DNA from: Candidatus Woesearchaeota archaeon
GTDB taxonomy: Archaea > Nanobdellota > Nanobdellia > UBA10117 > JABICX01
NCBI GenBank assembly: GCA_018692915.1
Contig: JABHLG010000006.1
Location: 5,627-69,626 of the forward strand
Direction: 5' to 3'
Length of the DNA: 64,000 bases
Of the stretch, positions 26,695 through 35,412 are shown piece after piece (the stretch's first letter is position 1; each line of letters begins with the position of its first letter). A program made the position numbers and the translations under genes. The notes beneath the pieces were generated by a model, which saw nothing but the letters and a program-made list of their open reading frames with translations, was not told where the DNA came from and made no database searches.

Positions 26695-26722
26695 TCATGT
26701 ATTTTTGCTTTTTGAATATATA

Positions 26723-26775
26723 CAATATATAGGCTTTGTGTATAAACTAGCTTCTGTGTATTAAGTCACCTTTTT
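26723..26775. repeat. Left copy of an imperfect inverted repeat bracketing the accessory island
   Basis: Core ggctttgtgtataaa (26732..26746) is the exact reverse complement of 35325..35339. Flanking atatat, ctag(a)ctt, tgtgta, gtca and ttttt patches also correspond. Confidence 0.4.
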
Positions 26776-26901
26776 GGATAGAATGTATTCTTTACAATAT
26801 AGACAATAATGTAATCTCCGCAGCCTTAATCAATAACTTAGCCCCGCTACGCTAGCAGCGTAGTTAGTACAAATAATTTTAAGAATTAGTTGATTTAACT
26901 A

Positions 26902-27024
26902 TTACTTACGTTTTCGATTCTTTGTTCCAGCGACTTTTCTTCTAGGTGCATATTGCACTTCGTGTTTCTGTGTACTTTGTCTCTTTCGATCTCGTGGACC
27001 TTTCTTTTTCAGATTATCTGGCAT
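26902..27024 (-). CDS. Small basic protein (40 aa), DUF3606-like
   Basis: Not in the ORF track. Translation is MPDNLKKKGPRDRKRQSTQKHEVQYAPRRKVAGTKNRKRK. Preceded by a strong GGAGGT Shine-Dalgarno sequence (aaagggaggtaaacaATG), unusual in this window. Confidence 0.4.
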   Translation of the reverse strand: MPDNLKKKGPRDRKRQSTQKHEVQYAPRRKVAGTKNRKRK

Positions 27025-27027
27025 TGT

Positions 27028-27306
27028 TTACCTCCCTTTGTTTGTGTAGCCTTTTTTACGCATACGATTATTTATAGAACCGTCTTTGTTTCGCATTTCT
27101 ACAACCGATCTACCGTAGCTCATTCCAACTTTTCTTGTACTTACAAATCCTTTGGATCTTCCAGTCATACCTGCTACAGTTCTTGTTGCTTTTGATGCAC
27201 CTCGTTGATTATGCTCTGGAGCTCGAACTTTAGCTAATCTAAATCGTTCACCATTAGTATAGACTCCACTGTCAGCATCTGTCCAATAAGCTATTTTCTT
27301 TCTCAT
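27028..27306 (-). CDS. Small thermonuclease (SNase)-like OB-fold protein
   Basis: GERFRLAKVRAPE resembles the RLxGIDAPE motif of staphylococcal-nuclease-like proteins. Only 92 aa. Confidence 0.4.
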   Translation of the reverse strand: MRKKIAYWTDADSGVYTNGERFRLAKVRAPEHNQRGASKATRTVAGMTGRSKGFVSTRKVGMSYGRSVVEMRNKDGSINNRMRKKGYTNKGR

Positions 27307-27437
27307 AAATATCTTCTATATTAATATCTTTTTAAAGTTTTGTTTAGTTGACTCTATAAAAACTACTGTTATGTTATATTTTAGTAATGTGGAGTAGTCA
27401 ATAAGGTTTATATAATTTTCCCTGCTTTATATTATTA

Positions 27438-28448
27438 ATGAGACAAACTAGAAAACAAATTCTTATTAAAATAATGAAGTTACTTGAACGAGATAATAGC
27501 TTAACTTTTCAACAAATTGTAGATAAAACAAAAAGCAGTTGGGAAACAATCAATAAGAATGTACTCCTTCTAAAAGAACTCAAGTTAGTTAATGAAAAAA
27601 TCGAAAACAAAAGTAGAATGATCTTTTTAGCGATACCGAACATAGAAAAGAATACAGACACTTTGTATGGACTTCCGCTATCTAAGGATATTCTTAATAA
27701 AAGTAGATGTATTTTTCAAGCAGTTTCAGATGTATGGAAAGATAAAGAAAATTATAATATACGACCTACTCGTTTACAAAAAGCTTCTGTTAGAGTTGTA
27801 GAAAAGATGAATTTACCAATCCCTATTGCATGGTATCGTTTTGGTAAAATTTTACCTGTATTTCCACAAACCATAGTTTGTCAAGATTCTGAAGATTATA
27901 AAGAAATTCGCGAAGTAGCTGAAATAGTATATTTAGAAGATAAGGATAAAACCGTACTCGCATTAGAATTAGAACAATATAAAGAAAAACCACTTTATGC
28001 TTTCTCGCTTAAACTTAGAAGAAAATTAGAAAGAACTACTTGGTCTAAAAAAGAAAAAGAAGAGATTAAAGATATATTATATCAATTAATGTTCACTATT
28101 CGATTCGATAAGAAATTCGATGAATATGCTAACGTGGCATCAGAATTTGCTCAGATGTTTATAGAAATCTTAAAAGAAAGTCAACGAGTTCTAGATGATA
28201 ATCAAGAAATCATTTTAGATACATACAAAGACGTTTGGGATTTAGTATCTATGATTGAATTTTATAATAGTCTGCAAAAATATTGTTCTACGGAAATACT
28301 GGATAAACATTTATCCTGGCCATTTAAGGTAGAAAAAGGAAATGCTACAGAAAGTCTTAAACGGTTTAGTGAGTTATTGCCCACAGTTAAAGAAGTAAAC
28401 TCTCCACTTAGAAAATATAAAGGCCGAGCTAAACTTCAAAATCATTAG
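27438..28448 (+). CDS. Hypothetical protein with an N-terminal winged-helix DNA-binding domain
   Basis: ILIKIMKLLERDNSLTFQQIVDKTKSSWETINKNVLLLKELKLV resembles a MarR/ArsR-type wHTH. The remaining roughly 260 aa are orphan. Confidence 0.4.
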   Translation: MRQTRKQILIKIMKLLERDNSLTFQQIVDKTKSSWETINKNVLLLKELKLVNEKIENKSRMIFLAIPNIEKNTDTLYGLPLSKDILNKSRCIFQAVSDVWKDKENYNIRPTRLQKASVRVVEKMNLPIPIAWYRFGKILPVFPQTIVCQDSEDYKEIREVAEIVYLEDKDKTVLALELEQYKEKPLYAFSLKLRRKLERTTWSKKEKEEIKDILYQLMFTIRFDKKFDEYANVASEFAQMFIEILKESQRVLDDNQEIILDTYKDVWDLVSMIEFYNSLQKYCSTEILDKHLSWPFKVEKGNATESLKRFSELLPTVKEVNSPLRKYKGRAKLQNH

Positions 28449-33444: not shown

Positions 33445-33472
33445 TTAGTATTATAGTATTATATAATACTAA
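33445..33472. promoter_or_regulatory. Perfect 11-bp inverted repeat (6-nt spacer) between the RHH gene and the transposase; candidate operator
   Basis: ttagtattata-gtatta-tataatactaa lies immediately upstream of the AAGGAG and ATG (33487) of the transposase. Confidence 0.5.
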
Positions 33473-33486
33473 GGAGAACTTCTACT

Positions 33487-34440
33487 ATGGAACAAAAACA
33501 CGCGACTGTAACATATTCACAGGATTGGGTAGCTTATGATAAAGCTCAAACTAATGAGAAACTTTTGTTCCTAACTTTGCTTAATGACTTATGCTCAAAT
33601 GTTGAACAGCCAACATACAAGTTCGGCAGACCAACTCTGCCACATTCAGATATGGTTTTTAGCTCTGTTCTAAAGGTATATTCAACCTTTTCTCTGAGAC
33701 GTTTTTTGAGTGATGTAAAACTTTCAACAGAGTGGGGCTTTCTGAATAAGGCTCCGTGCTTTGCTTCTGTTGGTCACTTTATGCAGAGAGAAGACATTAC
33801 GCCTCTTCTTGAGAAACTAATTCGACTTAGCTCATTTCCACTAAAGAAGGTTGAGCAGGATTTTGCAGTTGATAGTTCTGGTTTTGCAACATCACGCTTT
33901 GCTAGATGGTTTGATCACAAGTGGGGAAAAGAACAGAAACATAGAATCTGGCTCAAGGCTCACTTAATGTGTGGAGTAAAAACCAACATTGTAACCAGCT
34001 GTAGCATTACAGAAAAGACTGTTCATGATACCAGAGCCATGCCTAAGCTACTCAAAGAGACTGCTGAACAGTTTAATTTAAGAGAAGTCTCAGCAGATCG
34101 AGCATACCAAAGCAGAGAACTCTTTAACATGATTGAAGATGTTGGTGCAATTCCATTTATCCCCTTCAAGAAGAACGCTACAGGAAAATGTCGGGGTTCA
34201 ATCATCTGGAAGCGAATGTTCCACCTATTCATGTTCAAGAATGAAGAATTCATGCAACACTATCACAAGCGAAGCAATTCAGAGACGGTTTTCCACATGA
34301 TCAAATCAAAGTTCGGTATGAACTTGAGAAGCAAGACAAGAACAGCTCAAATCAACGAGCTGTTATGTAAAATACTAGCACATAACATCTGTGTAGTTAT
34401 ACAAGAGATGATTGAGTTGGGAATAAAAGCAGATTTCTAA
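33487..34440 (+). CDS. DDE transposase, IS5-family-like
   Basis: Catalytic-region blocks are AVDSSGF, VSADRAYQS and YHKRSNSETVFHMIKSKFG (the Y-x2-R-x3-E-x6-K signature of IS4/IS5 DDE_Tnp_1). Confidence 0.8.
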   Translation: MEQKHATVTYSQDWVAYDKAQTNEKLLFLTLLNDLCSNVEQPTYKFGRPTLPHSDMVFSSVLKVYSTFSLRRFLSDVKLSTEWGFLNKAPCFASVGHFMQREDITPLLEKLIRLSSFPLKKVEQDFAVDSSGFATSRFARWFDHKWGKEQKHRIWLKAHLMCGVKTNIVTSCSITEKTVHDTRAMPKLLKETAEQFNLREVSADRAYQSRELFNMIEDVGAIPFIPFKKNATGKCRGSIIWKRMFHLFMFKNEEFMQHYHKRSNSETVFHMIKSKFGMNLRSKTRTAQINELLCKILAHNICVVIQEMIELGIKADF

Positions 34441-34460
34441 ATGGAAATCTCTGGTTAGAA

Positions 34461-35222
34461 TTATAATTTATGATATGTTACAACTGGTTGATCTTCACCA
34501 ACTGGCTCAGCGTCAATCACTGCAAAATTATTATCAAATAGAGCACCAGGATTTATAGTATGCTGTCTATGTTTGAATAGTCTAAACGAATTTGAATCTA
34601 CAAAAGGAACGTAGCTAACAATACCTTTTGCAGGGTCCTTATATGTATATGCTGGCTCATGGTCGTGGCCTCTAATCATAACTTGATAGCCCTGTCTGTT
34701 TCTCTTGCTTGCCATAACTGCGAAGTTTGCAGCATGATCTGCTGAATTTGAAAGACGGTTCCAAAGCATTTGAACAGCAGGCGAATTTCCAGAACTACTA
34801 TGCTGGTCTCCAGCATAAGCTCCATGTATAACAATTATTTTCTGTTCTGGAGTTAAGTCTGTAGAAACTCTCTTGCCAAGTATACCGCTATTACCAAAAT
34901 ATCCCCGTTCGAATCCAGTTCTTATAAAATTAGTAGCTTCAGGATCATTTGCCCATTCTTTCCACATCTGAGGCGAATTAATACTTTGCTTGCGCATAGT
35001 GCCAGAGTATATAGTTTCACCATTAATATGCGAATAATCATGATTTCCAACAACCGCAATAGTGTCTTCAGTATCTAAAATATCCATTAATTCATGAGCT
35101 AAATGTGCTCGGTCTAAATCACCTAGAACAACTAGTTTATCAAAATTAGTTTCATCTTTAATTTCGTCTACTTTTCTTGCTAATGGAGCGCCATGTACGT
35201 CTCCTACGATTGCTATTTTCAT
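34461..35222 (-). CDS. Calcineurin-like metallophosphoesterase
   Basis: IAIVGDVHG, VLGDL, VVGNHD and IRGHDHE motifs. Confidence 0.8.
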   Translation of the reverse strand: MKIAIVGDVHGAPLARKVDEIKDETNFDKLVVLGDLDRAHLAHELMDILDTEDTIAVVGNHDYSHINGETIYSGTMRKQSINSPQMWKEWANDPEATNFIRTGFERGYFGNSGILGKRVSTDLTPEQKIIVIHGAYAGDQHSSSGNSPAVQMLWNRLSNSADHAANFAVMASKRNRQGYQVMIRGHDHEPAYTYKDPAKGIVSYVPFVDSNSFRLFKHRQHTINPGALFDNNFAVIDAEPVGEDQPVVTYHKL

Positions 35223-35281
35223 AGTATTACTTATAAGTGGAATAGTTTATTTAAAAAGCTTATCATTTTGTATTTTTGTGT

Positions 35282-35349
35282 AAAAAGTCAAGAGTCTGTG
35301 TAATAAGTCTAGCTAAAATACTACTTTATACACAAAGCCCAATATATAG
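35282..35349. repeat. Right copy of the imperfect inverted repeat bracketing the accessory island
   Basis: tttatacacaaagcc (35325..35339) is the reverse complement of 26732..26746, with extended patchy similarity. Confidence 0.4.
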
Positions 35350-35412
35350 AAACATTTATAAATTAAATAATTTACTTTATAGTAGTAATGAGAATTAACC
35401 TTAATAGACACA

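Follow-up and report, generated by a model that had tools for sequence, protein, structure and literature searches.

The window analysed here, meaning the whole stretch of 64,000 nucleotides from a Candidatus Woesearchaeota archaeon, carries between the gene asnS and a J-domain gene a segment (26732-35339) that we are confident is a single unit transposon, 8,608 bp long and belonging to an IS903-like lineage of the IS5 family. It is carried by a genome of the Woesearchaeota (DPANN). The segment moved as a single piece into the spacer between these two genes, duplicating the 9-bp target CAATATATA, and it consists of a conserved backbone, made up of its two ends and a module of ribbon-helix-helix (RHH) and transposase genes, with two cargo slots. 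A unit transposon of this sort, with one transposase gene and short ends, is termed a 'transporter IS' (IS, insertion sequence) by ISfinder. The window corresponds to contig C10 of a metagenome-assembled genome (G000; 608 kb, 13 contigs, 77% complete), and the relatives of its asnS place the source genome in Woesearchaeota/Nanobdellota (DPANN archaea).

Borders, sister elements and the locus in relatives

Each end of the element starts on its outer side with 5'-GGCTTTGTGTATAAA, present at 26732-26746 on the forward strand and as the exact reverse complement at 35325-35339. Both positions were verified as given in the original prediction, which had been made from the sequence alone. The ungapped inverted repeat spans 19 nt with 95% identity (26732-26750 and 35321-35339). 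Similarity beyond the 15-mer had also been predicted, and a gapped local alignment between the borders extends over about 50 nt with a score of 38, a value reached by none of 500 shuffles (20.7 ± 2.9). The corresponding "tgtgta/tacaca" patches listed in that prediction are real: they are further copies of the terminal site in subterminal position. A direct repeat of 9 bp without mismatch, CAATATATA, adjoins the outermost base of each arm, its left copy (26723-26731) abutting the left end and its identical right copy (35340-35348) abutting the right end. The left junction reads ...ACAATATATA followed by GGCTTTGTG..., and the right junction ...CACAAAGCC followed by CAATATATAG.... The probability that two random 9-mers from the source genome are identical is 1.7e-5, or 2.6e-4 if both are AT-rich.

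The end motif [AG]GCTTTG[TC][GT]TA[TA]AAA has five occurrences in the 608-kb assembly, comprising two inverted pairs (that of the window and one at 1214 and 12584 of contig C7) and one solo end on contig C9. The search for further copies that had been proposed with the prediction thus returned five sites genome-wide, and the repeat is not a common promoter-type motif. The proposed comparison of composition with the flanks was uninformative: G+C is about 0.33 inside the element and about 0.32 in the flanks, and skew likewise does not set the element apart. The predicted accessory island (26695-35412) is real, but the true element covers 26732-35339 and not the whole span from one intergenic region to the other.

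The C7 pair delimits a complete 11.4-kb element in the same genome (C7:1214-12584, locus L099), inserted 75 nt after the gene for ribosomal protein S7 and bearing a perfect 9-bp duplication, CAGATAATC, on both sides. Its transposase of 405 amino acids (aa) combines a SWIM finger with a DDE domain, and the gene has 70% nucleotide identity to the window gene and an orientation, relative to the end types, opposite to that in most relatives. The cargo of this element comprises a Type IIG enzyme (PADLOC E = 8e-183), an HKD-Snf2 helicase, an RNase H, a Cas4-like PD-(D/E)XK nuclease and a 50-aa zinc-ribbon open reading frame (ORF). A further element of 11,353 bp, with a perfect 9-bp duplication AACATATAA, was found in a genome of the same genus (G001, contig C5, 754-12106), and its transposase (323 aa) is, as in the window, without the SWIM finger. 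The cargo of the G001 element differs from that of the window element and only three blocks are common to both, at 26725-26882 (77% identity), 33103-34424 (88%) and 35271-35345 (93%). The backbone therefore consists of the two ends and the RHH-transposase module, with one cargo slot on either side of the module. The solo end on contig C9 (2695-2873, locus L101) is full-length, with the terminal sites and the subterminal modules B and C described below. Neither a partner end nor a matching 9-mer was found on its contig, and it is a remnant unless the element was cut off at the contig boundary. An element of this kind together with two sisters makes up 3.3% of this DPANN assembly of about 0.6 Mb.

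In related genomes the locus downstream of asnS lacks the island, as revealed by the comparison that the prediction had called for. In the closest syntenic relative (locus L024), asnS is followed after 5 bp by a homologue of the window gene at 36842-37252, and the flanking genes have 77-90% protein identity. In G001 (locus L004), the island is likewise missing; a diverged 0.7-kb spacer and a J-like gene come after asnS, and this spacer aligns loosely across the joined flanks of the window element. The suggestion that the repeats are termini of a large transposon is borne out by the 9-bp duplication, the internal DDE transposase, the sister elements and this absence in relatives.

A degenerate solo end (GGCTTTATGTATAAAAG...) was also observed on contig C2 of G001 (9973-10095, locus L097). 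It borders a 7.1-kb insertion (9907-17017) that separates two genes adjoining each other, 6 bp apart, in the genome of the window.

Transposase, end architecture and relatives

The transposase gene (33487-34440, forward strand) encodes a DDE protein of 317 aa of the IS5 family, IS903-like (Pfam DDE_Tnp_1, E = 7e-23). A BLASTP comparison with the IS903B transposase of plasmid Rts1 gave a colinear alignment (23% identity, aa 13-300, E = 6e-15) with the catalytic motifs in register. The DSSG, ADRAY and Y-2-R-3-E-6-K motifs are all present, with YHKRSNSETVFHMIK read in the translation. The element thus has the DDE_Tnp_1-type transposase with the Y-2-R-3-E-6-K signature that defines the IS5/IS903 group, and it also has two features of the IS903 group, namely terminal inverted repeats that start with GGCTTTGT and a 9-bp target duplication, the latter seen at three elements (CAATATATA, CAGATAATC and AACATATAA). 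IS903B itself has the inverted repeats IRL/IRR GGCTTTGTTGAATAAATC and a 9-bp direct repeat (PMC10569121). We therefore consider the module IS903-like on the basis of the IS5_2 match (just under the cut-off of that model) and the IS903B transposase match, together with the IS903B-type inverted repeats and 9-bp repeat. Judged by its sequence, the transposase is a distant relative of IS903 and not a close member.

The two ends are built differently. The left end (26732-26786, forward strand) is of a 'direct' type with three direct sites: the terminal site GGCTTTGTGTATAAACT (26732-26748), a second copy TTCTGTGTATTAAGT (26752-26766) and a degenerate third copy TTTTTGGATAGAATGT (26771-26786). The right end (35275-35339, reverse strand) is of an 'inverted' type. 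Its terminal site (35323-35339, reading inward GGCTTTGTGTATAAAGT) is accompanied by two inverted subterminal copies that read TCTGTGTAATAAGT (35295-35308) and TTTGTGTAAAAAGT (35275-35288) on the forward strand, and the end as a whole has 93% identity to the matching end in G001. The same asymmetry is found across the family, where one end has a terminal site of about 15 nt followed by direct copies at about +20 and +40, and the other a terminal site followed by inverted copies at about +33 and +53. Most relatives have their three direct sites about 20 nt apart. The variable core of the sites co-varies between elements (TGTGTA, TGTTTA, TGTTGC, TGTAGA, TGCACC and others). These repeated sites of about 15 nt are putative transposase-binding sites. 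By analogy with IS903 and other DDE enzymes of the IS4/IS5 type, the transposase would bind them and pair both ends, cut at the GGC termini and insert with a 9-bp stagger.

In the source genus the ends are extended by about 100 nt of conserved sequence, which corresponds to two lineage-specific subterminal modules (26780-26865, forward strand) that are 77-97% conserved with the ends of the C7, C9 and G001 elements. Module B is AATGTATTCTTTACAATATAGA, and module C is CTTAATCAATAACTTAGCCCC plus a hairpin with a 7-bp stem (CTACGCT-AGC-AGCGTAG, 26847-26863). A partial copy of both modules, lacking the terminal site, lies inside the element (33166-33229, reverse strand) as an inverted match to 26780-26845. 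The match covers 66 nt with a score of 57 against 21.3 ± 2.6 for shuffles (nhmmer E = 1e-5) and is kept in the G001 element. A structured RNA or small RNA gene as the primary explanation of the end region of about 170 nt was rejected, since RNAalifold on four copies of the region predicted weak hairpins only, with zero compensatory pairs, and the search of Rfam gave no match at the gathering threshold and one chance match (E = 8). One compensatory change was observed in the C-module hairpin of the G001 solo end (GCTGC/GCAGC to GTTGC/GCAAC).

Relatives of the transposase with 49-65% identity were found in DPANN, Methanomicrobia, Methanoperedens, Aenigmarchaeota and bacteria (Dehalococcoidia and Acidobacteriota). 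We searched 79 loci for elements with a script that required inverted 10-mer seeds around the transposase gene and an abutting 9-bp direct repeat. This yielded 16 elements of 3.5-11.4 kb, all with (G/A)GCTTTG ends: the one in G001 and 15 new ones, whose 9-bp duplications are perfect in 14 cases and carry one mismatch in the remaining one. The new elements range from 3.5 to 8 kb, so all of them carry cargo. All 18 delimited family members are at least 3.5 kb long, and one member of 2.7 kb was detected in metagenomes. In metagenomes, 50 distinct ends carry the exact 19-nt terminus of the window element; its sub-lineage has thus integrated at numerous sites, in line with recent mobility.

Among bacterial and archaeal relatives (loci L135, L152 and L137), some members are inserted right next to the terminal repeat of a different copy or no more than about 25 nt away from it, and at L152 the insertion is located beside a GGGACTTGG tandem array. 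Such positions hint at end-directed targeting and at a route to larger, fused elements.

The element shares several features with IS903/IS903B (IS5 family, IS903 group), an insertion sequence of Enterobacterales that flanks Tn903. Both have GGCTTTGT termini and a 9-bp duplication (PMC10569121), and the single DDE transposase of IS903, of about 310-320 aa, aligns end to end with the window protein, with conservation of the DDE residues and of Y-2-R-3-E-6-K. However, IS903 measures 1.06 kb and contains only the transposase gene between 18-bp inverted repeats, whereas the window element is 8.6 kb long and has about ten passenger genes distributed over two slots. It also differs from IS903 in the three binding-site-like repeats of each of its asymmetric ends, in the roughly 100 nt of extra conserved subterminal sequence, in the divergent RHH gene, in its archaeal hosts and in its insertion at promoter edges, and most of its relatives, unlike IS903, have an N-terminal SWIM finger. 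In Tn903-type composites, cargo is likewise moved by transposition chemistry of the IS903 type, but there two complete IS copies flank the cargo, while the window element has one transposase gene and short ends. Several sites per end and structurally different left and right ends are shared with Tn7, Mu and similar elements. The window element nevertheless lacks TnsABC or MuA/MuB-type machinery, has an IS5/IS903-type transposase and generates a duplication of 9 bp instead of 5 bp. As in bacterial defence-carrying elements (for example R-M systems on transposons and Tn7-like elements with defence genes), restriction-modification (R-M) and nuclease genes are transported as cargo, and this cargo is swapped between close backbones. 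The window element is distinguished from them by its archaeal host and IS903-like backbone.

Alternative explanations for the segment

Other classes of mobile element were considered and rejected. A length of 8,608 bp and about ten non-transposase ORFs do not fit a strict insertion sequence (about 1-2 kb, with transposition functions only), and a single transposase gene and non-coding ends of 55-135 nt do not fit a composite transposon, which has two complete IS copies at its borders. A casposon would encode the integrase Cas1 (casposase), to which no match was obtained; the sole cas-like match is the Cas4-like nuclease of the C7 element. Integration linked to a tRNA was rejected because no tRNA genes are present in the window. 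An invertible or site-specific integrative element was rejected on account of the lack of a recombinase domain in any ORF, the locus-specific 9-bp duplications and the same absence of tRNA genes.

The repeats could instead be sites of an invertible or excisable segment that is moved by a site-specific recombinase with no transposition, as the original prediction had allowed. They do enclose accessory genes, and the C7 transposase gene is reversed relative to the end types, but we consider this reading highly improbable. None of the ORFs of the element matched a tyrosine or serine recombinase in Pfam or NCBIfam, the perfect 9-bp duplications at three loci are a signature of staggered-cut transposition that would be unexpected for inversion, the ends and the length of the duplication match those of IS903 (PMC10569121), and the same terminus is found at many unrelated loci. 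The other suggestion of that prediction, binding sites for a shared regulator, would make the repeats promoter or operator motifs located by chance at both borders of a non-mobile variable region. The sequence GGCTTTGT(T/G)TA(A/T)AAA indeed resembles archaeal promoters with a B recognition element (BRE) and TATA box, and inward-facing genes follow several of the ends. Yet the motif is confined to element ends in all five of its genomic occurrences, ends without an inward gene exist (the left end of the window element, C9 and G001), and each element is accompanied by a duplication, with 50 different flanks in metagenomes, which leaves this idea only a very slim probability. Chance similarity within AT-rich intergenic DNA has practically no standing as an explanation of the border match and flanking 9-mers. 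With up to two mismatches, the 15-mer gave two matches in 7 of 100 shuffled versions of the window, and the duplication is AT-only and of low complexity; an inverted repeat with an exactly abutting 9/9 identity would nevertheless arise with P of about 2.6e-4 even for AT-rich 9-mers, and the independent recurrence of the arrangement at two other elements and 15 relatives has already refuted chance.

A possible but doubtful alternative accepts a real transposon and regards the window copy as non-autonomous or fossil, the loss of the SWIM finger having inactivated the transposase and the segment having become fixed as a defence island. The transposases of the window and of G001 are indeed without the N-terminus of about 90 aa that carries this finger in the C7 copy and most relatives, the third direct site of the left end is degenerate, and the exact 32-mer expected for an empty allele (the joined flanks with one copy of the duplication) had no exact match in metagenome contigs. 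Against inactivation, the window and G001 transposases have 95% protein identity with mostly synonymous differences, and the ratio of nonsynonymous to synonymous substitution rates (dN/dS) is 0.035 at dS = 0.88 for two SWIM-less copies in different loci and genomes and with different cargo. The transposase protein has therefore been kept functional by purifying selection. The DDE and YREK motifs are intact, both copies of the duplication are still perfect, and the IS903B transposase is SWIM-less too, its residue 25 aligning with residue 13 of the window protein.

Several observations weigh against the interpretation as an IS903-like unit transposon. Besides the missing empty site, the two arms of the window copy are only modestly alike beyond the first 19 nt, the best NCBIfam model (transpos_IS5_2) scored 135.8 bits, just under its cut-off of 140, and the missing SWIM finger leaves the present-day autonomy of this copy unproven. 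The role of the cargo in defence is proposed from homology only. Misassembly is possible in a metagenome-assembled genome of 77% completeness, although the three independent duplications speak otherwise.

Target choice and cargo

In the window, the right flank of the element reads CAATATATA, GAAACA and TTTATAAAT in direct succession. The latter two, a BRE-like and a TATA-like sequence (35349-35363, forward strand), are located outside the element and upstream of the J-domain gene, whose ATG is at 35413. Of 11 archaeal elements, 9 have on one flank a TATA-like hexamer with its first base 5-9 nt past the duplication, compared with 3.5% of random positions in the same loci (P = 4.5e-12), and in archaeal members the duplication ends about 6 nt before the TATA box. 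An outward-facing ORF was identified within 150 nt at 23 of 27 flanks with a TATA box versus 15 of 44 other flanks. At the former, TATA and ATG are mostly 27-37 nt apart, as in leaderless archaeal mRNAs. The element probably selects the upstream edge of archaeal BRE/TATA promoters. The positional pattern itself is solid; it was not seen in the bacterial members. The mechanism could be a direct reading of promoter DNA that resembles the element end, or the recognition of bound TBP/TFB. That the target mimics an element end is a hypothesis only: bacterial members adjoin the ends of other copies, but the offsets are inconsistent.

DNA methyltransferases are the commonest non-transposase domains among the 122 ORFs of the 18 elements (N6_Mtase 6, Eco57I 5, N6_N4 3 and C5 1), followed by PLD and PD-(D/E)XK nucleases and by helicases. 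We give an even chance to a broader reading, in which the window element belongs to a widespread lineage of archaeal cargo transposons that have a single transposase and relatives in bacteria. This lineage would combine IS903-like ancestry and asymmetric three-site ends with homing to the BRE/TATA promoter edge, through end-like DNA or the TBP/TFB-bound promoter, and would be a main vehicle of R-M and other defence genes among very small DPANN genomes. Cargo would be gained in such a lineage by fusion of neighbouring insertions, and the internal end remnant at 33166-33229 may be a trace of such a fusion. The lineage is apparently undescribed, as no published description of this transposon family was found in the literature searched.

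In bacteria, DNA transposons with passenger genes have a central role in gene flow. A 2019 survey stated that none had been detected in archaea (PMC6563490). The window element addresses this gap in the archaeal mobilome, with complete restriction enzymes carried within a very small DPANN genome. The occurrence of the same backbone with other cargo in a related genome shows a modular vehicle for defence genes where spare DNA is scarce. Insertion at promoter edges is a rare target choice for a DDE transposon and could serve as a tool for insertions that spare coding sequence.

Most of the gene functions assigned in the original prediction (PIN, Type IIG R-M, DUF2779, transposase, metallophosphoesterase, asnS and J-domain) were upheld by Pfam and PADLOC, while its SNase-like, winged-helix and RHH calls correspond to weak, sub-threshold matches. 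At the left side of the first cargo slot, a lysine/arginine-rich ORF of 40 aa (26902-27024, reverse strand) has no family match, and the neighbouring 92-aa protein (27028-27306, reverse strand) is weakly SNase-like (Pfam SNase, E = 0.006, 17.5 bits with a cut-off of 21). The next gene (27438-28448, forward strand) encodes a protein of 336 aa whose N-terminus may form a winged helix (sub-threshold match to Pfam HTH_24, E = 0.013) and gave no match in NCBIfam and PADLOC. A PIN-domain nuclease (28429-28869, reverse strand; Pfam PIN_3, E = 1.5e-8) is encoded immediately downstream of the Type IIG restriction-modification gene (28889-31753, reverse strand) and in the same direction. The Type IIG enzyme was recognised with PADLOC (REase_MTase_IIG, E = 3.4e-101, residues 56-759) and Pfam (N6_Mtase, Eco57I and TaqI_C). 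As predicted from its sequence, it unites endonuclease, gamma-class N6-adenine methyltransferase and specificity domains in the single polypeptide characteristic of this type, the N-terminal nuclease region giving a weak match (HSDR_N, E = 0.0097). Translation of the enzyme probably begins downstream of the TTG at 31753.

The slot also contains a DUF2779 nuclease-like protein (31645-33105, reverse strand; Pfam DUF2779, E = 5.6e-44), which likely starts with the ATG at 33105 (MSKLLTKSKY), about 27 nt past the TATA-like CTTATATG. Its promoter and start region (33088-33146) has 85% identity to C7:10263-10320 of the Cas4-like nuclease gene. The two genes are unrelated, yet the region they share includes a spurious upstream 'MLYF' reading frame.

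Within the backbone block of 88% identity to the G001 element, the RHH gene (33255-33380, reverse strand; 41 aa; Pfam RHH_1, E = 0.04, weak) is divergent from the transposase gene. At 33455-33470 the sequence contains a perfect palindrome of 16 bp, AGTATTATATAATACT, which overlaps a TATA-like box that precedes the transposase ATG by about 24 nt and is likely the RHH operator and transposase promoter, through which the RHH protein would repress the transposase gene. The second cargo slot is occupied by a calcineurin-like metallophosphoesterase (34461-35222, reverse strand; Pfam Metallophos and Metallophos_2), and by other genes in the G001 and C7 elements. The metallophosphoesterase gene has a separate BRE/TATA-like sequence, AAGCTTTTTAAAT, located about 30 nt before its ATG. 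The cargo of the window element may provide restriction-based defence or addiction for the host or the element, and may thereby aid its persistence in a very small genome.

Outside the element, the J-domain gene and the following 120-aa ORF (35413-36811) are absent from the colinear L024 contig, as is a 97-aa ORF upstream of asnS (25080-25373). The variable region therefore extends beyond the transposon, and the J-domain gene does not count as a conserved flank, at odds with the housekeeping role ascribed to it in the prediction. asnS itself (25408-26694) has 55% identity to its counterpart at L024 against 77-90% for the flanks, and 83% identity to that of G001 (L004) against 55-73% for the flanks, which suggests that it may have been replaced in place by a foreign allele in one lineage.

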